Notes: generated by a model from the letters alone, not told the origin. A DNA stretch of 64,000 nucleotides from a bacterium (GCA_030615605.1 JAUWYY010000011.1:3037-67036); one strand, 5' to 3'; counted from the first letter of the stretch, positions 10,543-38,280 are shown. Made by a program: numbers and translations.

Positions 10543-11418
10543 CTATAGATGCAGGACCGGGAGGCCGGCGATATCGGCTATGATGTCGGCCAGAACACTG
10601 CGATGACATTCTGAAGGATCTGCCTCAAGGCAGAGCAGTGCGAAGGGGTGAGCAGTAAGTTTCTCAGCGATCGCCCGGACAAGGGGCAATTCGGATTCAG
10701 TGATACGCTTGCGGTAGGCGGCAAACAGCTCTTTGCGCGCGAGGGCACTCTGCGAGTTATTGCGTTCGTCGCTAGCGATCCCCAGTGCAGGGTGGATAGA
10801 ATAAGACAGGCCAAGTCTTTCGAGGTGTTGTGATAGGGTACTGCCATGAAATCCATAGCGGCGCGACAAAGGTGTAGCTCGCACATCGGCCACACCAGCC
10901 AGCCCTTTGCGGAGAAGAAGATTCAGTACGCTGTCTATACTTTTCCCAGAATATCCAAGGGTGTAGACGGCTGGTTCCGCGGCAGGCTTGCTTACCGGAG
11001 CTTCAACGAGGTCGGACCGCTCACTCAAAAGTGAAAACCAGGGGTACTGGCGGTAGGTGTACGTCAGCAGATGTTCATGCGACCAGCCGCCGTACTTACG
11101 CACTATCTCCCGCACAGCCATATTGGTGCCCGAGGAAAGACTGGCGTGCAGCCCGCTGGCTGTTTCGATGCCAGATTTACCCTCCGCAACTAGTCTGGCG
11201 TCTACAAGCTTCTGAATATCGCGATATGCAACGAATGAAAACGCGCCATACTGATAGGGAAGAAAGTCGTAGGGCGAGTTGTCCAGCCCCCACTCAGTCT
11301 CGTTCGCCAGAAGAAAGAGCCACTTCATCAAACACGTCTTGCGCGCACGGGCACCGTTTTCGGTTAGGAACTGGAGGATCAGGCGTCTTCCCATTGTAAG
11401 CCTGGGAAGCTTGTTCAT
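10543..11418 (-). CDS. Fusion protein: SocA/Panacea (DUF4065)-like N-terminal domain + DUF488 C-terminal domain
   Basis: The C-terminal half matches the DUF488 pattern (VYTLGYSGKSID...VADVRATPLSRRYGF...ALLCLEADPSECHRSVLA). The N-terminal segment KWLFLLANE...YDFLPYQYGAFSFVAYRDIQKLV resembles DUF4065. The ATG at 11416-11418 is preceded by GGAGG. Confidence 0.75.
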   Translation of the reverse strand: MNKLPRLTMGRRLILQFLTENGARARKTCLMKWLFLLANETEWGLDNSPYDFLPYQYGAFSFVAYRDIQKLVDARLVAEGKSGIETASGLHASLSSGTNMAVREIVRKYGGWSHEHLLTYTYRQYPWFSLLSERSDLVEAPVSKPAAEPAVYTLGYSGKSIDSVLNLLLRKGLAGVADVRATPLSRRYGFHGSTLSQHLERLGLSYSIHPALGIASDERNNSQSALARKELFAAYRKRITESELPLVRAIAEKLTAHPFALLCLEADPSECHRSVLADIIADIAGLPVLHL

Positions 11419-11475
11419 TGTAACCTCCGCCTCTAACTGCGGTGTTGTGCTGCGATTGGCGGAACCTTTGTCAAT

Positions 11476-11484
11476 ATTATAACA
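11476..11484 (-). promoter_or_regulatory. Candidate extended -10 promoter (TGTTATAAT) for the DUF488 cassette
   Basis: The minus strand reads TGTTATAAT within an AT-rich 80-nt spacer between the rlmN stop and the cassette start. The -35 element is poor. Confidence 0.3.
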
Positions 11485-11507
11485 CAACCACCGAAAGAAT
11501 ACTATAA

Positions 11508-12533
11508 TTACCGGCGTATATGTGGCTGTCGCTGGCGCAGTTGGCCGCAGGCTGCGTCTATCTCCGTTCCCTTGCTGTAGCGTACGCTGGCATTGATGCC
11601 CTTGTGCCGCAGTTGTACACAGAATCGGTCTACGCGCCTGGGGGTTGGTCGCCGAAAGTTGGCGTGGCCTACTGCGTTGAAGGGAATGATGTTGACGTGG
11701 TGTCGCAGGTCACCAACCAATTCGGCCAGGCGGCTGGCCTGCTCCAGGGAGTCATTGACGTCCGCCATCAGCACATACTCGAAGGTAACGGGCTGTCCGC
11801 CGGTTACTCGCGTAAAGTACTGGCAGGCTGCCAGCAGTTCTGTAATACTCCAGCGTGCGGCACCGGGCATTAGCTCCTGGCGCTGGCAGTCGGTGACGGC
11901 GTTCAGTGATACGGCAAGCTCCACCCCCAGATTCATATCTGCCAGCCTGCGTATGCCCGGCACCAGCCCCGCGGTAGAGACTGTTATGTGGCCGGGTGAT
12001 AGGTCAAGCGTGTGGGGATCGGTAAAGCGCCGGATGGCCGCGACCACATTGTCCAGATTTGCCAGCGGCTCGCCTACCCCCATAAAGACAATGTTACGCG
12101 GCTTGTGGGTGACTCGCTGGACTGCGACTTGTTGACCAACTATCTCTCCAGTAGTCAGATTCCGCCCCACGCTTCCGAGCGCCGAAGCACAAAACAGGCA
12201 GCCCATCGCGCAGCCGACCTGACTGGACAGGCAAAAGGTATAGTAGGTGTCCATTGGGATGCTTACGCACTCCACCTGGACCTCATCCGGATACTCTAGC
12301 AGATACTTGGTCGTCGGCTGGCCGGCAGATTTCACTATGCGGGGACAATCGAGCTGAAACCGAGCGGCCAATGCTTGCTGCAGCGGATGGGGGAGGGTGG
12401 TCATCTTTGCGAAGTCGGCTGCACCGTGATGGTAAATCCACTCAAATATCTGGTCGGCACGGTATCGCGGCTCGCCGCAGTCGGCCAACCATTGGACCAA
12501 CTGTTGGTGACTCAGTTCGTAGAATAGCTCCAT
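11508..12533 (-). CDS. rlmN: 23S rRNA (adenine2503-C2)-methyltransferase, radical SAM
   Basis: YRADQIFEWIY is present at the N-terminus. The radical-SAM cluster motif reads GCAMGCLFCAS. The length is 341 aa. Confidence 0.9.
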   Translation of the reverse strand: MELFYELSHQQLVQWLADCGEPRYRADQIFEWIYHHGAADFAKMTTLPHPLQQALAARFQLDCPRIVKSAGQPTTKYLLEYPDEVQVECVSIPMDTYYTFCLSSQVGCAMGCLFCASALGSVGRNLTTGEIVGQQVAVQRVTHKPRNIVFMGVGEPLANLDNVVAAIRRFTDPHTLDLSPGHITVSTAGLVPGIRRLADMNLGVELAVSLNAVTDCQRQELMPGAARWSITELLAACQYFTRVTGGQPVTFEYVLMADVNDSLEQASRLAELVGDLRHHVNIIPFNAVGHANFRRPTPRRVDRFCVQLRHKGINASVRYSKGTEIDAACGQLRQRQPHIRR

Positions 12534-27272: not shown

Positions 27273-27905
27273 TTAGTCATCAGAACCTGCCGGCCTCACG
27301 CCCAGGGCCTGAGCGATCTGTTCGACGGTTACCAAAGGCACATTGTGAGCTTCCAGAAACCGTTGGAGGGTGGCCCCAGCAGCCATATGTCCATCCGGCG
27401 CCATTACCTCACACATCGCCACCACCGGAGATAGCTCGGCCAGTTGGGCTAGACCGACAGCGCCCTCAGTGTGGCCGGTCCGGTCTGCCAGGCCCTCCGG
27501 AGCTGCCGCCAGAGGGAAGACATGACCGGGACGGGCAAGATCCTCCGGGCGAATATCCCGGTTAGCCAGAGCCCTTATAGTGGCGGCACGATCAAATGCC
27601 GAGACCCCTGTGGTCACTGCCGGCGTGTAGTCCACCGGCACAGTAAACTGCGGCATATTCTTCGCACAAAACTGCTGGTCGAGGACGGGAATTTGCAGTT
27701 CGCTCAGCCGCTGGGGAGCCATAGCAACGGTAATGAGGCCCCGCACATGGGTGAGCATAAAGTTTATGCTCTCCCCACTCACATACTGGGCGGCCTGCAA
27801 CAGATCCGCTTCATCTTCACGGTTGGCTGAATCCAGCAGCGCAACAAAGCCGCCTCGGCGGAAATGGTCAATCATTTTGTCGAGGGGAGTAACTGTAGTC
27901 GGCAA
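27273..27905 (-). CDS. ribB: 3,4-dihydroxy-2-butanone-4-phosphate synthase (monofunctional)
   Basis: It has GGFVALLDSANREDEADLLQAAQ...MLTHVRGLI...TGHTEGAV. The start is a TTG at 27905, with AGGTGA upstream. Confidence 0.9.
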   Translation of the reverse strand: MPTTVTPLDKMIDHFRRGGFVALLDSANREDEADLLQAAQYVSGESINFMLTHVRGLITVAMAPQRLSELQIPVLDQQFCAKNMPQFTVPVDYTPAVTTGVSAFDRAATIRALANRDIRPEDLARPGHVFPLAAAPEGLADRTGHTEGAVGLAQLAELSPVVAMCEVMAPDGHMAAGATLQRFLEAHNVPLVTVEQIAQALGVRPAGSDD

Positions 27906-27968
27906 GGCCTGCGATCACCTATCAATCATCATAAAGGCAAACATAAGAGGCTCGGTTGCTTCAGCGGC

Positions 27969-27997
27969 ATTATAAGAAGTAACGGAACTGGTGTCAA
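27969..27997 (-). promoter_or_regulatory. Consensus sigma70 promoter for ribB (TTGACA-17 nt-TATAAT)
   Basis: The minus strand reads TTGACAccagttccgttacttctTATAAT. This leaves a leader of about 60 nt. Confidence 0.65.
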
Positions 27998-28033
27998 TGA
28001 AGATACTATCTGTCACAGTTGGGAGCAAGTCGG

Positions 28034-28062
28034 TTGCATACTGCAAGCCGATTGGGTATAAT
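28034..28062 (+). promoter_or_regulatory. Sigma70-type promoter for the tRNA gene (TTGCAT-17 nt-TATAAT)
   Basis: TTGCAT lies at 28034-28039 and TATAAT at 28057-28062. The promoter is divergent from, and back-to-back with, the ribB promoter. Confidence 0.6.
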
Positions 28063-28095
28063 ATGGGCAGTGTACGAAGAAAACAGCGCAACCTT

Positions 28096-28170
28096 CGGGC
28101 CTGTAGCTCAGCGGCAGAGCAGTCGGCTCATAACCGATCGGTCGGTGGTTCGAATCCGCCCAGGCCCACC
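28096..28170 (+). tRNA. tRNA with CAT anticodon (elongator Met, or Ile2 if lysidine-modified); encoded CCA
   Basis: I folded the cloverleaf by hand. It has acceptor GGGCCTG/CAGGCCC, D arm GCTC-AGCGGCA-GAGC, anticodon arm GTCGG-CTCATAA-CCGAT, a 5-nt variable loop, T arm GGTGG-TTCGAAT-CCGCC, discriminator A and CCA. The G1:C72 pair argues against an initiator tRNA. Confidence 0.9.
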
Positions 28171-28249
28171 ACTGAGGTGTAAGTGTCCACCACTCTCCCC
28201 AGCGATAGCACCGTAGCGTCTGGCAGGGTGGTTTTAACACTGTTGAGGC

Positions 28250-31200
28250 TTGCCGTTTACAAGTTGGCCTCGGCTGATGCCAATGTTAGCAACTATTGCC
28301 GACCATATTATGTCGCGACGACACAGGCTGGGCCGCCATGTGCTGTTCATCGGTAGTGCCGTTCGCACACCCCCCGCAGACCGCGAAGTCTACCTGCTTC
28401 TCGAAGACCTGGCTCGCGAGCAGACAGGTATGTCCTTCCAGCATCTGCCTGTCGAGCGGCGGGGGCCGGCGGCAGTGGCCGAATTTGCCCGCCAGGTGCC
28501 CGACCAGGCGCAGCGCTGTGGGCTGCTACGGGAGAGACTGAGTGATGTCCGTCCGACCGAGGGCCACTCGCAACTGGCCCGGCTGATTCAGGACGGCTAC
28601 TTTCCGACCATATTTACCATGGAGCCCCACGATCTGCTGGAACGAGCCCTCAGCGACCGCCACCTGGAGCCGGAAACCGACTATCATCTGCTGGTTGCTG
28701 GCGTTGATGATGCAGAGACGATATCAGTGGCCCTGGAGGACTCCTCGCGGGTGGTAGTGGTGAAATGCGGCGGTGACCTGGCCAATAAACGCCTGCCTCT
28801 AACTCCTGAGGAAATCCGCCAGGGACTGGAGCCGATAGGCGAGGTTATTGGTGCGGCTTTCGGAGTGATCTGCATATGTACCGCCTACGACGAGCGTGAT
28901 GAGCCGTTCCTGGACTTCGTGCCCGACGAAGGAGGTAAAGTCTTCTGGGTTAATCGGCAGGTACCTACTGCCGATGAACAGATGTATACCCAGCTTAAAC
29001 TGGAGAGTCCCGCCAGTATGGAGTTTCACAGCTTACAGCCCAAGGTAGTCCGGTGGTTGAGCCATCGCCAGTCACAGCGTCATCTGCTGGTGCGCGAGTC
29101 CGGCTCATTCAATGACTTCTTTGCCCGGCTGCGCGACCGCTTCCAGTATCGCAAACACACCAGCCGGGGCCTGCGACGAGATCTTACTGTGCTACGGGGT
29201 GGACCCTACCGCTTTCTGGATTACTTCGACACCGAGGATTCTGACTTCTTCTTCGGGCGAGACCAAGAGATTTCCCAGCTTATGGACCTCATCGAGCAAC
29301 ATCGTCTGACCGTACTATTTGGGCGATCAGGCATTGGCAAGACTTCACTTATCAAGGCCGGAGTAATGGCAAGACTGCTGGGTCGCCACGAGGAGCACCT
29401 GGATGATGCCGGGGTTTGGTTGCCGATCTACGCACGCTGTCAGGACGAGCCCATAGCCAATATCCGCGAAGCTGCTCTGCAGAGGGCGGAAGAAGAGGGC
29501 TACGATATAGACGACTCCGTCGACTCGGATGAGTTGGCTGATCTGCTGTCCGCGATTGCCACTGCTTCCTCTCAGCGCATTGTAGTATTTCTGGATCAGG
29601 CTGAGGAGCTTTTCGTCAAACTGGGCGGCGCCGTCCGCGATAGTGCTATTCAGCAGCTCAAGCAGTGTCTGGCCGCCGCAGATGAGCGCGTCCGGCTGGT
29701 TTTAAGCATCCGCGAAGACTACCTGGGCGAGCTGTATGAGCTAGAAGATGAGCTCCCGGGTATAATGGCGAACCTGTATCGGCTGCACAAGCTGGACAAG
29801 CAGCAAGCCGAACAGGCTATTGTCCAGCCCGCAGAGAACTTCGGCCTGCACGTGGAGCGAAAACTGGTAGACCAATTGGTAGAAGATCTGGCCCGCGAGG
29901 GGATCGAACCCGTCGAGCTTCAGGTCGTCTGCGATCGGTTGTATCAACAGAAATCGGCCGGCTCGGACACCATCACTCAACGCGATTACGAGAAGCTGGG
30001 CGGCGCTCCTAAGATATTCAGTGAATACTTGGACTATGCCCTGAGTCAATTGCCCATACTTGAGCGGCGGGTAGCCCGGGGCATTCTCAAACAGATGGCA
30101 GTCTCTTCTGAACTGAAGGCAGCGCGCTCGCTGGAGCGAATTGCTCAAGAGGTAGGGCAAAACACCCGCTTGGTCGAGCGAGTGATGGCCAAGCTAGTGG
30201 ATTTCCGGCTGTTGCGGGGACTGGGCAAGGACAATAAACGCAACTACGAGCTAATCCACGAGCAGCTTATCCAGCAGGTTGATGAATGGATGTCGGAGGA
30301 GGAACTGAAGCTGCCCGACGTCCAGGATCTGCTCACTCGCGAGCTTAACAACTTCCACAAGTTCGACCTGCTGATGGGCAGTGAAGAGCTACATATCATT
30401 AACGACCATCGCGAGGATCTAAGCATCTCCCCCGAAGAGATGGAGTTGATCCTGCGCAGCGTGGTCCATCACGATTTCGAGGTAGAGTATTGGTTTTCTC
30501 GCGCCAATGGGCTGGAAGCAGCCAAATGCTCCACACTCAGTTCGCTGCTGACCGACGAGAACCGCGAGGTCCGGCTGGTGGCTTACCGGCACATTGAGGA
30601 TCACCTCGACGAAAGTCTCATACCCGCCCTGACAGCAGGGCTTGACTACGATCAACTGGAGGTGCGCAATCTGGCTGCCCAGTATCTGCGTGGGATGAAG
30701 CGTGAGCTGAGCAACTGGCTGCGCGAGGGGGATGAGCGTCAGCAGATGGCAGCTGCCCGGGGGCTGGGCCATGTTGCAGCCGACGATCAGCGCCCGACAC
30801 CGGCACTTGTTGAAACTCTCAGCGACGAGCACCCCGAACTGACTGCGGAGGTTATCCACTACCTGAGAAAGATAGACAGCCCCCGCAACACATCAGCTCT
30901 CATCAACCGTATCGCTTCCGAGCCAGATGGGCCCTGGGCAGTTGCCGATGCGCTTGGTCGGCTCTGTTCGGCGCAAGTCGGGCTTGACCGGCTGCAGCGT
31001 GCTGCCCACAGCAACCCGAAAAGCGCCCGCCTGCAGTACGCCATAGCAGTGGCCCATATCCAGCGCCGCGAATTCTATGAGGCCCGGATGCGTCTGGAGC
31101 GCGCCGAGCAACTCGCCTCTGGTTCTGCTGCTGCCAGCTACCTGGCTACTACCCGCGAGGCTATACAGACGGCTCAGCAGCAGAGCGCCACTTCGGCGGA

Positions 31201-32227
31201 CGAATGGGCTATGTTCGCTGGCGGCTCGACACATCACGGCTTTAGCGGGCGGGCCATCACTCCGCCTCTGCGCGAGGTTTGGTCTACTCGCGCCCAGGCC
31301 GCGGTGGTAGCGTCGCCGGTTACTACTGCCGGCCGCGTCTACATTGGTGCTCGCGACGGCACCTTCTTCGCACTGGATGGCGCTGAAGGCCATATTCTGT
31401 GGACCTTCGCTGCCGGTAATCGCATAGAAGGAGCCGCTGCGCTCGCCGACGATATGGTCATATTTGGCGCCGGGGACGGGAGATTATATGCCTTGAACCA
31501 GGCCACCGGCCAATCACAGTGGGAACGACCCCTGAACGGCCCGGTAAGGGGAGCCTGCACGGTAGAGGGCGATCAGCTTTTCGTCGGGGATGAGAGCGGC
31601 ACGTTGTGGGCGGTAGACTGGGCTACAGGAACCACTAACTGGCAGATGGCAACTGATCAGGAGATAATCTCTGCTCCGGCCGTCTGTGAAGAGACGGTAG
31701 TAGTAGGCTCGTGGGATACTGGGTTGTATGCGGCAAGCGCCACCGATGGCCAACTGCGCTGGAGATTAGATACCGACGGACCCATCTCCTGTTCGCCCAC
31801 CATAAACGAGTCAACAGTGTTTTGCGGGTCTGACGACTTTTCGATGTATGCTGTAGACTTGGCCTCCGGTCAGATCCAGTGGCAAGTCAATGTTGGTGGC
31901 ATGGTTAGGTCAACCCCAGCCATCGCCGATGACCGTCTGGTCTTTGGTAGCACCGACGGCAGCGTGTACTGCCTGGACACAAATTCCGGAGAGCAGCTAT
32001 GGCAGCACGCAACCGACGAAGAGATCCTGGCTTCTGCCACTATCACCGGCGAGGTCGTCTACATCGGCTCCAAGGACGGTATTCTGTATGCCCTGGACCT
32101 GGCCACTGGCCAGGTAAAGTGGGAACACCACACCGTTTACGGAATCTACTCCACCCCGTGTGTCGCTGCAGGCACTCTGTACATCGGTATTGCTTACTAT
32201 TATGTGTCGGCCTTCGCCCCCCAATAG
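28250..32227 (+). CDS. Multidomain STAND NTPase: degenerate SIR2-like domain, P-loop STAND module, HEAT/TPR repeats, PQQ-type beta-propeller
   Basis: 1,325-aa ORF. The SIR2_2-like motifs are VLFIGSAV, HSQLARL..FTMEPHDLLERAL, VVVVKCGGD and CICTAYDERDEPFLDF. The STAND module has PYRFLDYFDTEDSDFFFGRDQE, Walker A GRSGIGKTS (29321-29347) and Walker B VVFLDQAEELF (29582-29614). HEAT-like repeats include ENREVRLVAYRHI and EVRNLAAQYL. Seven to eight blades are of the type DGxLYALDxxTGxxxW (31204-32224). The start codon is uncertain: TTG 28250, ATG 28277, ATG 28283 or ATG 28310. Confidence 0.85.
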   Translation: MPFTSWPRLMPMLATIADHIMSRRHRLGRHVLFIGSAVRTPPADREVYLLLEDLAREQTGMSFQHLPVERRGPAAVAEFARQVPDQAQRCGLLRERLSDVRPTEGHSQLARLIQDGYFPTIFTMEPHDLLERALSDRHLEPETDYHLLVAGVDDAETISVALEDSSRVVVVKCGGDLANKRLPLTPEEIRQGLEPIGEVIGAAFGVICICTAYDERDEPFLDFVPDEGGKVFWVNRQVPTADEQMYTQLKLESPASMEFHSLQPKVVRWLSHRQSQRHLLVRESGSFNDFFARLRDRFQYRKHTSRGLRRDLTVLRGGPYRFLDYFDTEDSDFFFGRDQEISQLMDLIEQHRLTVLFGRSGIGKTSLIKAGVMARLLGRHEEHLDDAGVWLPIYARCQDEPIANIREAALQRAEEEGYDIDDSVDSDELADLLSAIATASSQRIVVFLDQAEELFVKLGGAVRDSAIQQLKQCLAAADERVRLVLSIREDYLGELYELEDELPGIMANLYRLHKLDKQQAEQAIVQPAENFGLHVERKLVDQLVEDLAREGIEPVELQVVCDRLYQQKSAGSDTITQRDYEKLGGAPKIFSEYLDYALSQLPILERRVARGILKQMAVSSELKAARSLERIAQEVGQNTRLVERVMAKLVDFRLLRGLGKDNKRNYELIHEQLIQQVDEWMSEEELKLPDVQDLLTRELNNFHKFDLLMGSEELHIINDHREDLSISPEEMELILRSVVHHDFEVEYWFSRANGLEAAKCSTLSSLLTDENREVRLVAYRHIEDHLDESLIPALTAGLDYDQLEVRNLAAQYLRGMKRELSNWLREGDERQQMAAARGLGHVAADDQRPTPALVETLSDEHPELTAEVIHYLRKIDSPRNTSALINRIASEPDGPWAVADALGRLCSAQVGLDRLQRAAHSNPKSARLQYAIAVAHIQRREFYEARMRLERAEQLASGSAAASYLATTREAIQTAQQQSATSADEWAMFAGGSTHHGFSGRAITPPLREVWSTRAQAAVVASPVTTAGRVYIGARDGTFFALDGAEGHILWTFAAGNRIEGAAALADDMVIFGAGDGRLYALNQATGQSQWERPLNGPVRGACTVEGDQLFVGDESGTLWAVDWATGTTNWQMATDQEIISAPAVCEETVVVGSWDTGLYAASATDGQLRWRLDTDGPISCSPTINESTVFCGSDDFSMYAVDLASGQIQWQVNVGGMVRSTPAIADDRLVFGSTDGSVYCLDTNSGEQLWQHATDEEILASATITGEVVYIGSKDGILYALDLATGQVKWEHHTVYGIYSTPCVAAGTLYIGIAYYYVSAFAPQ

Positions 32228-32228
32228 C

Positions 32229-33104
32229 GTGCCTGGTAGCCGTCGCTTAGGAGCAGTCGGTGCATCGTCGGGTCTCCGTGCCTGCCTGGCTGCTGTCATC
32301 GTGGCTGCAACAGTGCTTAGTGGCTGCCGGTGGGCCGGGCCAGTTGACCAGATGCGAAAGGATTTCGTGGCGCTGCGATACATTAAGACGGCGGCAGAGG
32401 CCGTTAGCGAGCCGGTTGACGCAGAAGCAGCCGTCCACAATGCCACCCGCGCAGTCAAGCTGGCTCCCGACAATGCCACTGTGCTCGACCGTGCCGGTCG
32501 GATTTATGTCTACACCGGGCAATACCAGCAGGCCCTGGCAACATTGGAAAAGGCACGCCGCCACACCGACAGGCAATATCTCTATGAGATAGGAAGCTGC
32601 TTGCTGCACACCGGGCAGAAAGAAAAGGGAATTGCCTACCTGACAAGGCATTTAGCAAACGTGAAGTTCGACTACCATGCGGAGAATATCAGTGGGGGCG
32701 GTTATGCCCTGCATCTGAACAACGTCGGGTATGTCTATGCCGAGGCTGATCTGCAACTACCCCACGCCCTGGCACTGACCAGGCAGGCAGTGAGCTTCGA
32801 TCCGCTGAATCCGGTTCTTGTTGACAGTCTGGGGTGGGTTTATTACAAGCTGAATGACCTAACAAATGCCAGCTTCTACCTGGAGCAAGCTGTCAGGCAA
32901 TCGCTGCACCAGCCCAACGCGGAACTTAACTACCACCTGGCCATGGTCTACATCCGCCTGGGGCGACGTGCCGAGGCCGCCCGCGAACTGAAGCGAGCAC
33001 TGCAGATTCGGCCGGGCTACCCGGCGCCCCAGCGTGAGCTTCGCAGACTGCACTGGGAGTTGGCCCCGCCGTGGTATGCCCAAACCATGGCTCAGGCCTC
33101 GTGA
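32229..33104 (+). CDS. TPR-repeat lipoprotein
   Basis: The GTG at 32229 lies 1 nt after the upstream TAG. It gives VPGSRRLGAVGASSGLRACLAAVIVAATVLSGC, which has the lipobox LSGC. TPR units follow (e.g. AELNYHLAMVYIRLGRRAEAARELKRALQIRPG). Confidence 0.65.
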   Translation: MPGSRRLGAVGASSGLRACLAAVIVAATVLSGCRWAGPVDQMRKDFVALRYIKTAAEAVSEPVDAEAAVHNATRAVKLAPDNATVLDRAGRIYVYTGQYQQALATLEKARRHTDRQYLYEIGSCLLHTGQKEKGIAYLTRHLANVKFDYHAENISGGGYALHLNNVGYVYAEADLQLPHALALTRQAVSFDPLNPVLVDSLGWVYYKLNDLTNASFYLEQAVRQSLHQPNAELNYHLAMVYIRLGRRAEAARELKRALQIRPGYPAPQRELRRLHWELAPPWYAQTMAQAS

Positions 33105-33135: not shown

Positions 33136-34323
33136 GTGAAGATCTCTCAGCGAGCTGACAATATCCAGCCTTCCGCGACGGTAGGTATGGCCACTCGTGC
33201 CAAGCAAATGAGCCGGCGAGGACTCGATGTGATATCGCTCGCCGTCGGCGAACCCGACTTTGTTACGCCGGAGCATATCTGCCAGGCAGCTCACCAGGCG
33301 ATAGAGGCGGGGCATACTAAGTATACGGCTGCTTCCGGCATTCCTGAGCTTAAGGAAGCCGTCGTCGCGCGCCTGCGAGCCGAGGTAGGCCTGAGCTACG
33401 ATGCCGACCAGGTCTGTATCAGTAACGGAGGCAAGCATGCGCTCACCAACATCTGGCAGACACTGCTCGATGAGGGCGACGAGGTAATTGTGTTTGCTCC
33501 CTACTGGGTCAGCTATCCAGCGCAGATCCAACTGTGTGGAGGACGAGCGGTGACCGTAATGACGGACGCCAGCCGCGGCTTCCAGCCCGATCCCGCCGAG
33601 GTACGCCGTGCAGTGACTCCCCGAACCGTTGCCATCCTGGTCAACAGCCCTGCTAACCCCACCGGAGCTGTCTTCGGTCAGGAAACGTTGCAGGAAATCG
33701 CTGCCATCGCCGCCGAGAACGACTTGACCATCATTTCTGACGAGATATATAGAAATCTCATCTTCGACGGCCGCCAGCACCTCAGCATTGCTATGCTCGA
33801 CGAGGAGACCAAAGCGCGAACCATCTTGGTTGACGGGGTATCAAAGAGCTATGCGATGACTGGCTGGCGCATCGGCTGGCTAATCGGCCCCAAGGAGTTT
33901 GTCGGCAAGGCCGGAAGCATCCAGAGCCAGGAAACACATAATCCTTGTTCTGTTGCTCAATATGCCGCTTTGGCTGCTCTGACTGGCCCTCAGGACTGTG
34001 TAGCCACGATGCGCGACCAATATGAGCAGCGTCGCGACTTCTTTGTGGAGGCCCTGGGTGAGCTTGAAGGTATCGAGTGCAACACTCCCCCGGCTGCGTT
34101 CTACCTCTTCCCGGACATCTCAGCTCACCTGGGGCGAAACTTGGCAGGCCAGCAGATAGACACCTCCCTGCAACTGGCCGAATATCTACTGGAGGAAGGC
34201 TTGATCAGCACAGTGCCTGGCTCAGCGTTCGGCGCGGAAGGCTTTTTGCGCCTCAGCTTTGCCTGTTCAGTTGAGGATATTAAGCGGGGGCTACAGCGAC
34301 TCAAGACAGCTCTGGAAATCTAA
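33136..34323 (+). CDS. aspC: Aspartate/aromatic aminotransferase (class I PLP enzyme)
   Basis: It has LAVGEPDF, NSPANPTG and the PLP-lysine motif SKSYAMTGWRIGW. The GTG at 33136 is preceded by AAAGGAG. Confidence 0.9.
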   Translation: MKISQRADNIQPSATVGMATRAKQMSRRGLDVISLAVGEPDFVTPEHICQAAHQAIEAGHTKYTAASGIPELKEAVVARLRAEVGLSYDADQVCISNGGKHALTNIWQTLLDEGDEVIVFAPYWVSYPAQIQLCGGRAVTVMTDASRGFQPDPAEVRRAVTPRTVAILVNSPANPTGAVFGQETLQEIAAIAAENDLTIISDEIYRNLIFDGRQHLSIAMLDEETKARTILVDGVSKSYAMTGWRIGWLIGPKEFVGKAGSIQSQETHNPCSVAQYAALAALTGPQDCVATMRDQYEQRRDFFVEALGELEGIECNTPPAAFYLFPDISAHLGRNLAGQQIDTSLQLAEYLLEEGLISTVPGSAFGAEGFLRLSFACSVEDIKRGLQRLKTALEI

Positions 34324-35336: not shown

Positions 35337-36425
35337 ATGCACACTGTAACACTTATCCCCGGGGACGGTACCGGGCCGGAAGTCATTGAAGCGATGCGCC
35401 GCTGTGTGGAGGCTGCCGGCGTGGACATCCAGTGGGAGCTGCAGCAGGCTGGCGCCGATACTATGGAAGAGTGTGGGACGCCGCTGCCCGAGTCGGTGCT
35501 GGACTCGATTCGCAAAAACCGCGTGGCTATCAAAGGCCCTATTACCACGCCGGTGGGCACCGGCTTCCGCAGTGTAAATGTAGCTCTGCGCAAGCAGCTT
35601 GATCTGTACGCCTGCCTGCGCCCCAGCAAATACTATGAGGGCGTGAAATCCCGCTATCCTGGTGTTGACCTGGTAATCGTGCGGGAGAATACCGAGGATC
35701 TCTACGCCGGTATTGAGTTCGCCGCCGGCACCGACGAGAATGCGAGGATAATAGAGGAGATACAACAACTGACCGGCCAGCAGATCCGTCCGGATTCCGG
35801 CATCAGTATAAAGCCGATATCCCGGCAGGCCTCTGCCCGGATTGTGCGCTTTGCCTTTGAATATGCTCTGGCCCACGGCCGCCACAAAGTTACCGCAGTG
35901 CATAAGGCCAATATTATGAAGTACAGTGACGGGCTGTTTCTGGATACCGCCCGCGGCGTTGCCCAGGAGTATGCGGACAGCGGCATCGAATTTGAAGACC
36001 GCATCGTGGATAATATGGCTATGCAGCTCGTCCAGAAGCCCGAGCTTTACGACGTCCTGGTTCTGCCCAATCTATACGGGGATATCATAAGTGATCTGGC
36101 CAGCGGGCTGGTCGGCGGGCTGGGAGTCGCGCCGGGCGCTAATATTGGTGACGACATCGCCGTCTTCGAACCAACTCACGGCAGCGCCCCCAAATACAAG
36201 GGCCTGAACAAGGTAAATCCGACCGGGACCATACTCTCAGCCGTGCTTATGTTGCGTCACTTGCATGAAGAGAAGGCCGCTGATCGCCTGGAGTCGGCGG
36301 TGGCTGCTGTTATCAAGCGAGGCGAGAAAGTCACCTACGATCTCAAGCCGACCCGCGACGATCCTACCGCAGTCGGCACCAGCCAGATGGCTGATGCTAT
36401 CATCGCTGAGCTGGCTCGAGCGTAG
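35337..36425 (+). CDS. icd: Isocitrate dehydrogenase (isocitrate/isopropylmalate dehydrogenase superfamily)
   Basis: The segment [33 protein letters not shown]...[16 protein letters not shown] closely parallels the bacterial ICD signature. GAGGAGG lies upstream of the ATG. Confidence 0.85.
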
Positions 36426-36485: not shown

Positions 36486-37268
36486 CTACCGGCGTACGGC
36501 CCGAATCAGCAGCGCCGGAATGACCGTGATGGCGGCGGCCAGTGCCACGGTCAGAATGCCGAAGTTAAGCAGTGCCTGCAGCCAGCCCAGGCCACTGTCC
36601 ATGTGCGTTATGAAGAATTGACAGATGGGGGTATCCGCCGGAAGACGCTGTAGCACAACAAATGCGGCAACAAGCCCCAGCCCCACACCGAGCAGAGCGG
36701 GGATGCTGCGCCGCACATCGATGCGGCTCGGGGCCAACTCCGAGCCGATACTGAAGGCCAGGTACAGAAAGAGGTAAGTCTGCCAGGCGTCGAAATTCAG
36801 AGCCTGTAAGTTCATCCAGATATTGTCAACTAGCAGATCGGCGAAGCCGGCGGGGGCAAGCGTCGCAAAGTGCAGGTCAATGGCGAGCATATTAGCTACA
36901 CCGCGCAAGGCCAGGGTGCCGACCAGCAGCGGGGCAATGGCCGCTACCCCCGTCGCCAGCCAGGGCAGAGCTATCGGCGACCAGGGCCGTCCCGGTTGGC
37001 AGGAGCCGCGCCCGCGCGGATCGAAAACACAGGGGATCATGCGCCGCACCGTATAGCCGAAAATCAGGTAGCCAGCAGCATGGCTCAGTTCATGAATGAG
37101 GTTTCCCGGCAGGCGCAGCAGTTGCACCAGCCGTCCGCCCCGGGCGTGGGGATTGCGACTGGCCACCGACTGCAGTACCCAGACAAAAATCAGCCGGGAC
37201 AGCATGTAGAGCAGAATTGCTTCAGCAACAACGATGGCGGTCTGCTTGGCGAATACAGTCGCATCCAT
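36486..37268 (-). CDS. Polytopic membrane protein with HExxH motif (putative zinc metalloprotease, DUF3267/M50-like)
   Basis: The motif is LIHELSHAAGYL. There are 5-6 TM segments. I prefer the ATG at 37266-37268 because the longer track ORF would run across the mdh start. Confidence 0.55.
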   Translation of the reverse strand: MDATVFAKQTAIVVAEAILLYMLSRLIFVWVLQSVASRNPHARGGRLVQLLRLPGNLIHELSHAAGYLIFGYTVRRMIPCVFDPRGRGSCQPGRPWSPIALPWLATGVAAIAPLLVGTLALRGVANMLAIDLHFATLAPAGFADLLVDNIWMNLQALNFDAWQTYLFLYLAFSIGSELAPSRIDVRRSIPALLGVGLGLVAAFVVLQRLPADTPICQFFITHMDSGLGWLQALLNFGILTVALAAAITVIPALLIRAVRR

Positions 37269-37347
37269 ATCAGCGCTATTATAACAGACTGCCGTCACTG
37301 ATACCATTCGAATGTAGATAGCTTCTATCTGATGGGAGGGCACTGCT

Positions 37348-38280
37348 GTGAAAGTTACAATAGTCGGAGCGGGCAATGTCGGGGCCACCTGTGCCCAGCG
37401 CATTGCTGAGGCTGATATTGCCGATGTTGCCCTCATTGACATAGCCGAAGGCCTCGCCGCCGGCAAGGCTCTGGATCTGGCCGAGGCCGCCCCGCTGGTC
37501 GGTCACAGCCGGCGGATTGTCGGTGGTGAAGATTACACCCTGGCCGAGGAATCCGATGTGGTGGTGATTACCGCTGGTCTGCCCCGCAGGCCGGGCATGA
37601 CCCGCGATGACCTGCTGGCCGCCAACGGTGAAATCATCACCCAAATAGTCACGGAACTAAGTCGGACTGCTCCTGATGCCATCTATATTATGGTTACCAA
37701 TCCGCTGGATGTGACCACTTACATTGCCCATCAGATATTGGAAGTGCCCCGGGAGCGGATTATGGGTATGGCCGGCGCGTTGGATAGTGTTCGGTTTCGC
37801 ACGTTCATTGCTATGGAGCTGGGCTGTGCACCGGTGGACGTCCAGGCGATGGTTCTGGGCGGGCACGGCGACTCAATGGTGCCGCTGCCCCGCTATGCCA
37901 CCGCTGGCGGGATGGCGGTAACTGAACTGATTAGCTCGGCACGGCTGGAGGAGATAGTGGAGCGGACGCGCCAGGGCGGGACGGAGATCGTCTCGCATCT
38001 GAAGACAGGTGGGGCCTTCTATGCTCCGGCCGCCGGCGTCGCCCAGATGGTCGCCGCCATTGTGCGCGATGAGAAGCGCCTGATGCCGGCTTCGGTGCTG
38101 CTGCGGGGCGAATACGGTCTTGATGATGTCTTCGTGGGGGTGCCAGTCAAGCTGGGAGCGGCTGGCGTCGAGGAGATAGTTGAGCTTGACCTGACCGAAG
38201 AAGAGTTGGCCGCCCTGCACGACTCCGCAGACCATGTCCGGCGAACAGTTGCCCAATGGCAAGAGGTGCAAGATGCCTAG
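37348..38280 (+). CDS. mdh: Malate dehydrogenase (LDH-like)
   Basis: It has KVTIVGAGNVGATCA, ITAGLPRRPGMTRDDL and GGHGDSMVP. The GTG start is preceded by GGGAGGG. Confidence 0.9.
   Translation: MKVTIVGAGNVGATCAQRIAEADIADVALIDIAEGLAAGKALDLAEAAPLVGHSRRIVGGEDYTLAEESDVVVITAGLPRRPGMTRDDLLAANGEIITQIVTELSRTAPDAIYIMVTNPLDVTTYIAHQILEVPRERIMGMAGALDSVRFRTFIAMELGCAPVDVQAMVLGGHGDSMVPLPRYATAGGMAVTELISSARLEEIVERTRQGGTEIVSHLKTGGAFYAPAAGVAQMVAAIVRDEKRLMPASVLLRGEYGLDDVFVGVPVKLGAAGVEEIVELDLTEEELAALHDSADHVRRTVAQWQEVQDA

Follow-up and report, generated by a model that had tools for sequence, protein, structure and literature searches.

A pseudo-SIR2/nSTAND1/HEAT/PQQ-propeller protein at a fixed locus of Candidatus Zipacnadia, a possible NLR-like cellular switch

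Bacterial STAND or NLR-like proteins with a SIR2 head are now read almost automatically as antiphage systems that deplete NAD+, and a preliminary description of the gene analyzed here, which we call X, proposed a conflict sensor of the Avs/bNACHT type. X lies at 28283–32227 on the plus strand of a bacterial stretch of 64,000 nucleotides (GCA_030615605.1 JAUWYY010000011.1:3037-67036), called the window below, and its product joins a SIR2-fold head that has lost its catalytic residues to an nSTAND1 NTPase with preserved ATPase motifs, a HEAT solenoid, and a PQQ propeller. The gene occurs as a single copy in a block of fixed synteny, is under purifying selection, and diverges together with its neighbors. 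With modest confidence, we read X as a vertically inherited core NLR-like STAND ATPase of Zipacnadia whose role is more likely a cellular checkpoint or regulation than antiphage defense. The best explanation for its origin is a descent from SIR2–nSTAND1 modules of other phyla, whose conflict role is assumed from their type.

Domain architecture and the degenerate SIR2 head

The open reading frame (ORF) that contains X is open from a TTG at 28250 to 32227 on the plus strand and is by far the longest of the region. It had been described as a four-module protein of 1,325 residues; the open frame and all four modules are borne out by profile searches and AlphaFold2 models, but another start and length are more likely, since the ATG at 28283 is kept in 21 aligned loci and the orthologous proteins begin with MLATIADH. 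We therefore take X as a protein of 1,314 residues (28283–32227) and count residues from this ATG, which places the numbering of the preliminary description 11 higher.

The head comprises residues 1–295 (28283–29167, plus strand). Searched alone, it matched no Pfam family at E-values up to 10, SIR2_2 (PF13289) included, and PADLOC models of Ago-associated SIR2 domains matched residues 78–200 with an E-value of 2e-9. An AlphaFold2 model of residues 1–310 (45 sequences) reached a predicted local distance difference test score (pLDDT) of 90 and a predicted template-modeling score (pTM) of 0.88. The top Foldseek matches of this model were all prokaryotic defense SIR2 domains (probability 1.0, E-values from 5e-9 to 1e-5, template-modeling [TM] scores of 0.5–0.6), with the SPARSA Sir2 as the top PDB match (E 5e-9, TM 0.61) and DSR2, KomC/HAM-SIR2, SIR2/HerA, and ThsA as further ones. 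The predicted structure confirms a SIR2 Rossmann-type fold, and both parts of the earlier label, SIR2-like and degenerate, proved correct, as the catalytic Asn and His are absent. In phmmer alignments with the SPARSA Sir2 (8jkz, 8in8), its TTNFDD stands against FTMEPHD of X, and its KIHGDF against KCGGDL. Counted from the alignment offsets, SPARSA N142 and H186, which we take to be the catalytic residues, correspond to E114 and G163 of X, and the equivalent His is the residue that was mutated in the PDB entries DSR2 H171A and KomBC H146N. Across 83 full-length orthologues, the Asn position is E in 57, D in 17, another residue in the rest, and N in none, and the His position is G in 45, A in 31, another residue in the rest, and H in none. 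Because both catalytic residues are absent in all 83 orthologues, the head of X cannot be a canonical NADase effector. The more divergent members P0131–P0142, which are described below, carry G, L, M, or Y in place of the His, and an N occupies the Asn position in P0133 only.

When 1.84 billion representative proteins were searched with a head profile, 21 matches lay below 1e-30, which are proteins of about 1,305–1,349 residues or fragments thereof. Below the score gap, the distant SIR2_2 matches nearly all had the canonical GAGA, TTNFD, and KLHGD motifs; the X family, surrounded by active SIR2 enzymes, is therefore set apart by its loss of the catalytic residues. A word-based homologue search with the head alone returned nothing new, just nine orthologue fragments. 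X does not belong to the active SIR2_2 NADases: it has the fold, but neither the Asn and His nor a score above the Pfam threshold. The head contains 26 invariant columns, and its mean column identity is 0.64, compared with 0.62 for the NTPase. Invariant residues specific to the family are E93, S154, R156, K161, C162, G164, E177, R205, G217, and W222. The glycine-rich loop remains as G24-S25-(G/A)26, and the Y..RD motif common to the SPARSA Sir2 is also kept, which makes nucleotide binding by the head plausible.

The nSTAND1 NTPase (residues 308–677; 29204–30313, plus strand) matches the Pfam family nSTAND1 (PF20703) with an E-value of 5.8e-57; the match spans profile positions 1–358 of 379, and its score of 194.5 bits is above the cut-off of 27.1. 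The STAND module with Walker A and Walker B had already been recognized, and both motifs are intact (GRSGIGKTS with K353 and VVFLDQAEE with D438). G352, K353, S355, and D438 do not vary among 15 diverse orthologues and are conserved in all 83, and the NTPase of X looks active. The following HEAT-type alpha-solenoid (residues ~700–968; 30380–31186, plus strand) is the least constrained part of the protein; HEAT_2 matched with an E-value of 2e-13 in the whole protein and 3e-15 when the region was scanned alone, so that, of the HEAT- and TPR-like repeats proposed earlier, the HEAT repeats stand, and the TPR match is weak (E 0.085). The C-terminal propeller (residues ~985–1314; 31235–32224, plus strand) matches the Pfam profiles PQQ_2 (E 6e-47) and Beta-prop_ACSF4 (E 3.5e-63). 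In an AlphaFold2 model of residues 690–1314 (pLDDT 93), a 17-helix solenoid is followed by eight four-stranded blades, where seven to eight PQQ/BamB-type blades had been counted. No signal peptide and no lipobox was found when the N-terminus of X was read by sequence, and for this reason, and because the ATPase lies N-terminal to the propeller, we take the propeller as cytoplasmic.

The order of a SIR2-fold head, an nSTAND1 domain for nucleotide binding and oligomerization (NOD), and a repeat sensor is that of NLR proteins, as had been proposed. X is a member of Pfam nSTAND1 and, by analogy, may work like an NLR/STAND switch. The combination of domains appears to be undescribed, which agrees with the earlier assessment that it fits no described family: public records name the family just "PQQ-binding-like beta-propeller repeat protein" or "BamB/HEAT repeat protein", and full-text literature searches (nSTAND1; STAND with SIR2) returned no description of it. 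The propeller is of the eight-bladed PQQ type known from BamB, YxaL, and AfsK, with the designed protein Cake8 (TM 0.94), BamB (about 0.8), YxaL, and tetrathionate hydrolase as nearest folds and TM scores of 0.8–0.94 to Cake8, BamB, and YxaL. However, the propeller of X is fused behind a cytoplasmic ATPase, and orthology to BamB was rejected, as X scores below the cut-offs (250 bits against 285 for TIGR03300 BamB, 153 against 423 for NF008351) and has no signal peptide or lipobox.

SPARSA Sir2-APAZ, DSR2, ThsA, SIR2/HerA, and KomC are the best structural neighbors of the head, and a Y..RDE motif is common to the SPARSA Sir2 and X, but these proteins are NADases with an Asn/His pair, whereas X has E and G. 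Avs5 is a SIR2–STAND antiphage protein, e.g., EfAvs5, and the studied copy resides on a phage-inducible chromosomal island (PICI) (PMC11897194). Its oligomerization or filamentation, by which SIR2 domains are gathered, is a plausible template for X. However, the SIR2 domain of Avs5 is an active NADase, whereas the catalytic Asn and His are missing from X, X has a Pfam nSTAND1 as its NOD and a sensor of HEAT repeats and a PQQ propeller, and Avs5 is mobile, whereas X is fixed at a core locus. X is not an Avs5: no Avs model was among the PADLOC matches to X, and there is no active effector and no mobile or defense context. The NCBIfam Avs4 model gave a negligible match (E 0.06, 10.5 bits against a cut-off of 1500), Pfam found no other effector domain in X, and a sequence search of residues 1–706 against PDB chains returned nothing significant and thus no link to Avs5 or other solved STAND proteins.

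The nSTAND1 family (PF20703) has been linked to prokaryotic NTP-dependent conflict systems (PMC7159879). X resembles these NTPases in its NOD with intact Walker motifs and in the typical arrangement of an N-terminal accessory domain and C-terminal repeats, but its family is single-copy, constant in architecture, vertically inherited in one class, and equipped with a degenerate head. The other nSTAND1 matches of our protein search carry WD40, TPR, kinase, caspase, or FGE-sulfatase domains, and a PQQ propeller sensor was not seen among them.

Distribution, locus, and selection

In the protein database, the family is represented by about 86 full-length clusters (38–90% identity, 1,294–1,335 residues), and the named sources are Armatimonadota. 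In a scan set with one genome per GTDB species, X was found in 52 different assemblies, with one copy each, either full-length or cut by a contig end; these assemblies are labeled Candidatus Zipacnadia, Armatimonadia, Armatimonadota, or candidate division WS1. The closest relatives of the window's X are found at locus L010 (92% identity) and then in a Zipacnadia metagenome-assembled genome (MAG; 85%). Zipacnadia are the GTDB class UBA5377, known from MAGs of deep-sea sediment as anaerobic, fermentative or acetogen-like bacteria (PMC10290634).

Wherever the relevant flank was present, the order tRNA-Met(CAT)–X–TPR protein–aspartate aminotransferase was fixed: the tRNA gene lies directly 5' of X in 46 of 46 GTDB loci with enough upstream DNA, the TPR protein gene 3' of X in all 47 loci with downstream DNA, and an aspartate-aminotransferase-like gene after it in all 42 loci with a long enough flank. 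Isocitrate dehydrogenase is next in most loci, and malate dehydrogenase follows in many. A synteny comparison of the interval from ribB to the aminotransferase gene had been suggested in the preliminary description, and it shows that the block downstream of the tRNA is constant, whereas the side 5' of the tRNA varies between sub-clades, with ribB in the window and hisG, dnaG-rpoD, or a thioredoxin-like gene elsewhere. The tRNA adjacency in 46 of 46 loci is therefore ancestral and not an integration scar, and a recent insertion at the tRNA can be ruled out. This agrees with the earlier impression that X is no obvious recent insertion, as the locus is fixed across the 52 species genomes, and that its G+C content is host-like (0.577–0.589 over X, 0.55–0.62 over the window). 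Among the copies that are not cut by contig ends, 44 of 46 are intact, with GTDB protein lengths of 1,313–1,324 residues. The two disrupted copies (L047, 5142–9080; L058, 6001–8866) could be misassembled or truly lost; one contains an in-frame stop, and its annotation is that of a 940-residue protein without the propeller (P0086), and the other appears in two alignment pieces. A scan of metagenome contigs that was anchored on the aminotransferase by generic peptide patterns returned enzymes of other phyla as its best 80 loci (39–51% identical).

To describe selection, ratios of nonsynonymous to synonymous substitution rates (dN/dS) were calculated pairwise between close species according to Nei and Gojobori; they are rough figures, as several pairs are near dS saturation, and the aminotransferase pair L015–L040 gave an artefactual value. 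The dN/dS of X is 0.10–0.15 (0.20 in the closest pair), on a par with the housekeeping genes beside it; the neighbors have 0.09–0.13 for the aminotransferase, 0.07–0.16 for the GAF histidine kinase, 0.06–0.11 for carA, 0.12–0.30 for ribB, 0.17–0.26 for EamA, and 0.15–0.29 for the TPR partner. For the individual domains, given without the closest pair because of the few differences there, the values are 0.09–0.15 for the SIR2-fold head, 0.07–0.16 for the NOD, 0.11–0.17 for the propeller, and 0.20–0.24 for the HEAT solenoid (0.31 in the closest pair). The putative sensor showed no diversifying selection in these pairwise comparisons. The dS of X equals that of its neighbors, with 0.21 against 0.22–0.28 between the window and L010 and 0.72 against 0.69 between the window and L007. 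The Pearson correlation of pairwise identities between X and its neighbors is 0.86 for isocitrate dehydrogenase and 0.87 for the aminotransferase, over 33–41 species, and 0.93 for the TPR partner, over 22 species. The dS values, dN/dS ratios, and identity correlations fit a vertical co-descent of X with the surrounding core genes.

More divergent full-length proteins (P0131–P0142; 1,305–1,349 residues), one of which is labeled Armatimonadota, have kept the nSTAND1 domain and the PQQ propeller, and six of the seven scanned members also have HEAT repeats. Two of their loci were compared, and neither has a tRNA next to X: in one, pyr genes, ychF, and a prolyl isomerase precede X, and an MreC-like protein and mreC follow, and in the other, dprA precedes X, and a secreted PQQ propeller and addAB follow. 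The divergent Armatimonadota orthologues thus also reside among housekeeping genes. At the divergent locus L151, the gene that follows X was considered as a homologue of the TPR partner and rejected, as it looks like an MreC fragment.

The proposal of a conflict or antiphage sensor of the Avs/bNACHT type found no support, as X is a single-copy gene at a fixed locus in 52 genomes with housekeeping-like conservation and without defense neighbors. The PADLOC analysis that had been recommended gave no match among the 19 ORFs between 18193 and 42987, i.e., within 10 kb on each side of X. Orthologues that are universally present at this locus, which the preliminary description had named as an argument against a conflict role, are what we find at the level of the class, as far as the 52 species genomes with X can show, and the conflict reading is therefore not supported.

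Elsewhere in the window, outside 18193–42987, PADLOC candidate families were matched, namely PDC-M19A/B (E 2e-62 and 8e-79) and, more weakly, PDC-M45B/C and PDC-M51B, along with a weak match to a type I specificity subunit (E 3e-6). The PDC matches lie neither in 18193–42987 nor in ten large distal ORFs; they possibly stem from two epimerase/dehydratase ORFs at 10543–12533 and are probably sugar-nucleotide or envelope genes rather than defense genes.

Outgroup relatives and possible functions

The nearest relatives of X by sequence are nSTAND1 proteins of about 1,020–1,070 residues from Anaerolineae, other Chloroflexota, Chthonomonadaceae, and other lineages, which are 30–38% identical over the NOD. 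They have the same order of head, NOD, and HEAT repeats, and most of their heads also lack the catalytic His, but they have no PQQ propeller and occur in varied genomic contexts. In L059 (5725–8928), the head on the STAND protein is intact (GAGIS, STNYD, KIHGC), and no separate SIR2 gene was seen at this locus. In L147 (8001–15416), L149 (8001–14595), and L061 (4264–6050), the head is degenerate, and a separate, intact SIR2_2 protein of 255 residues (GAGIS, TTNWD, KLHGS), which is 34–45% identical to the head, is encoded in the operon. The intact SIR2 gene is located directly upstream in L061, and two to three genes lie between it and the STAND gene in L147 and L149, of which two have weak SBP_bac_5 matches in L147 and none has a Pfam match in L149. 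Effector-associated domains have been proposed to act by homotypic interactions in NTPase conflict systems, in a study that does not mention SIR2 (PMC7159879). The same logic would apply to an NTPase that carries a dead copy and has a live paralogue nearby, and the outgroup operons suggest a homotypic SIR2 adaptor signaling, i.e., SIR2–SIR2 seeding, a mechanism of which we found no description in the literature searched. The locus L148 (8001–13553), without a separate SIR2 gene, encodes a relative of 1,850 residues in which a Ser/Thr kinase is fused in front of a degenerate SIR2–nSTAND1–HEAT core, and the degenerate-head core thus is reused with other output domains; its start is overlapped by the end of a gene for an extracytoplasmic function (ECF) sigma factor, and a HigB/HigA pair is nearby.

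In the X lineage, the head has lost the Asn and His of the NADase and has nevertheless been retained by strong purifying selection with an invariant residue set of its own. By analogy with STAND and NLR proteins in general, we propose a mechanism in which the HEAT solenoid and the eight-bladed PQQ propeller would serve as the C-terminal sensor, and a ligand that binds there, most likely a protein or small molecule, would relieve autoinhibition. The intact NOD could then exchange ADP for ATP and oligomerize, and the clustered pseudo-SIR2 heads would form a non-catalytic platform that does not itself deplete NAD+. The output of such a platform may be the recruitment of a partner by SIR2–SIR2-type contacts or the binding of an NAD-like nucleotide. 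In view of the outgroup operons and the filament habit of the SIR2 domains of Avs5, ThsA, and KomC, an assembly or adaptor role is the most economical reading, with nucleotide binding without turnover as the alternative. Oligomerization, the adaptor role, and the cellular function of X are inferred by analogy. More tentatively, and with less than even confidence, we suggest that X is a "domesticated" NLR that has been fixed in the whole class, with the SIR2 weapon turned into a pseudo-enzyme for homotypic assembly or NAD sensing.

An innate-immune sensor that has been fixed in the lineage, with a propeller that sees a conserved phage protein and a pseudo-SIR2 head that seeds or activates an intact SIR2 or another effector from elsewhere in the genome, similar to the two-gene modules of the outgroups, is the alternative that survives best, and we nevertheless regard it as unlikely. 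It would be in line with the NLR-type order of domains and the association of the nSTAND1 NOD family with conflict systems (PMC7159879), and in outgroups, a degenerate head indeed occurs together with a standalone SIR2 that is intact. Since Avs5, ThsA, and KomC use their SIR2 domains as filaments, nucleation of a live SIR2 by a dead one is conceivable. However, tblastn found no standalone SIR2 in the 64-kb window or in the flanks of the 52 loci, and there are no defense genes within 10 kb on either side of X. Avs and bNACHT genes are generally patchy and horizontally mobile, whereas X is a single copy at a fixed locus, is constant in length, co-diverges with its housekeeping neighbors, and shows no hypervariability in repeat number or sensor, with a propeller dN/dS of 0.11–0.17. 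Its fixation, the purifying selection, and the context thus make a cellular checkpoint likelier than a lineage-fixed immune sensor with an effector in trans.

Quite unlikely in our estimation is a further possibility, that X monitors cell-envelope biogenesis from the cytoplasm and acts with the co-translated exported TPR protein in a manner similar to AfsK. AfsK-type kinases with a cytoplasmic PQQ propeller respond to cell-wall stress, and the propeller of X matches the C-terminal region of AfsK with an E-value of 1e-40. The TPR partner (32202–33104, plus strand) has a signal peptide with the lipobox AATVLSGC and resembles envelope TPR proteins of the PilW, PrsT, and BepA types below the cut-offs. 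Its gene begins 26 nucleotides before the stop of X in the window; the overlap is 4–30 nucleotides in most loci, and elsewhere the two genes overlap or abut. In the orthologues, the N-terminus is a signal anchor or has an L-x-G-C lipobox, and a conserved MRRDFVALRY comes just behind it. The gene overlap suggests that translation of a cytoplasmic protein is coupled to that of an extracytoplasmic one, the identity correlation with X is the highest of all that were calculated (r = 0.93), and divergent orthologues adjoin mreC or a secreted PQQ propeller. Against this role of X, the two proteins are predicted in different compartments, every link is one of gene neighborhood, and the divergent orthologues have no adjoining TPR partner.

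That the head has been neo-functionalized, with E93, H95, S154, R156, K161, C162, E177, R205, and D206 as a new active site, is highly improbable. The 26 invariant columns, the strong purifying selection, the partly kept G24-S25-G/A26 loop, and the Y..RD motif common to the SPARSA Sir2 would favor it. Against it, the divergent proteins P0131–P0142 have lost C162 and several more of the "invariant" residues, the conservation is equally expected of a binding or assembly surface, and, to our knowledge, no known enzyme uses this constellation of residues.

Several points weigh against the cellular role that we favor for X. Its function is approached by inference in a family without a cultured member, and as the partner is exported and X is taken as cytoplasmic, a direct complex of the two is not obvious. 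Sensors of conserved phage proteins can also evolve under purifying selection, and a slow pace of rearrangement, not a functional linkage, may explain why the synteny with metabolic genes is conserved. Furthermore, the number of 52 refers to species genomes that contain X, with Zipacnadia genomes that lack it uncounted, and the search for standalone SIR2 genes covered the window and the locus flanks.

A STAND protein outside of defense has a precedent in principle. As a concept, X can be compared with MalT, AfsR/SARP, and Apaf-1, STAND NTPases that are kept as fixed, non-immune cellular switches. They differ from X, which has no DNA-binding or CARD output but a pseudo-SIR2, and which has no sequence relationship to them beyond the STAND class. 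If X is such a domesticated NLR, SIR2 would represent a death-fold-like adaptor domain in prokaryotic NLR signaling, given the outgroup series from an intact SIR2–STAND fusion to a dead head with a separate live SIR2 and to a dead head alone, and this series would document the turning of an immune NLR into a cellular regulator, a step that is assumed for Apaf-1-type proteins. The X family is a warning against defense annotation from domain architecture alone, and it provides a concrete case of what may be a non-immune, or lineage-fixed, NLR of prokaryotes. In the outgroup operons, a dead head is combined with a closely related live SIR2, which points to an adaptor mechanism that can be tested; a practical limit is that the hosts of X itself are uncultured sediment bacteria.

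The tRNA, the leader, and the neighboring genes

X is preceded by a tRNA-Met(CAT) gene (28097–28171, plus strand; ARAGORN; Rfam tRNA, 69 bits), which ends 78 nucleotides before the TTG, in agreement with the roughly 80 reported earlier, and 111 nucleotides before the likely ATG. The tRNA is of the elongator type, and its G1:C72 pair rules out an initiator tRNA. An Rfam scan of 27850–28400 detected nothing beyond the tRNA. The tRNA is nearly invariant across 21 aligned loci. Its pairs C4:G69 and C5:G68 are presumably TilS determinants of tRNA-Ile2 (lysidine), and the tRNA may read AUA rather than AUG. Upstream of it lies a putative promoter (28034–28062, plus strand) that matches the consensus with TTGCAT, a 17-nucleotide spacer, and TATAAT, and TTGnnn and TATAAT are found at the same place in 21 of 21 aligned loci. 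A perfect TTGACA-17-TATAAT consensus on the minus strand (27997–27969) faces ribB and is divergent to this site.

Between the tRNA and X, alignment and folding point to a terminator-like hairpin with a U-tract (28189–28236, plus strand), which a simple terminator scan had missed because the loop is long. The sequence of plain terminators is usually not conserved. The stem CCACUCC/GGAGUGG is kept even where the X proteins of two species share just about 45% identity, and it is also present in L001, L003, L011, L012, L015, L018, L020, L022, L044, L051, and L056. A second sub-clade (L027, L029, L032, L033, L039, L049) has a GC-rich GGGGCGGC...GCCGCCCC hairpin with a U-tract instead. As the U-tract is separated from the ATG of X by just 46 nucleotides in the window, transcription from the tRNA promoter probably reads through into X, which would form an operon with the gene of the exported TPR protein.

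The genes near X in the window encode an amidohydrolase, carA, a TPR protein, a GAF histidine kinase, an EamA transporter, and ribB, and the earlier assignment of ribB and aspC as flanking genes was correct, with ribB upstream and an aspC-like aminotransferase gene downstream. Behind the TPR partner, this aminotransferase gene (33136–34323, plus strand) is the third gene of the conserved block after the tRNA, if X is counted as the first and the TPR gene as the second, and it is followed by a PEMT/ICMT-like methyltransferase, isocitrate dehydrogenase (35337–36425), and malate dehydrogenase (37348–38280). Between the two dehydrogenases lies an ORF of 326 residues on the minus strand (36486–37466) without an NCBIfam match, whose position is kept in many loci with 37–50% identity.

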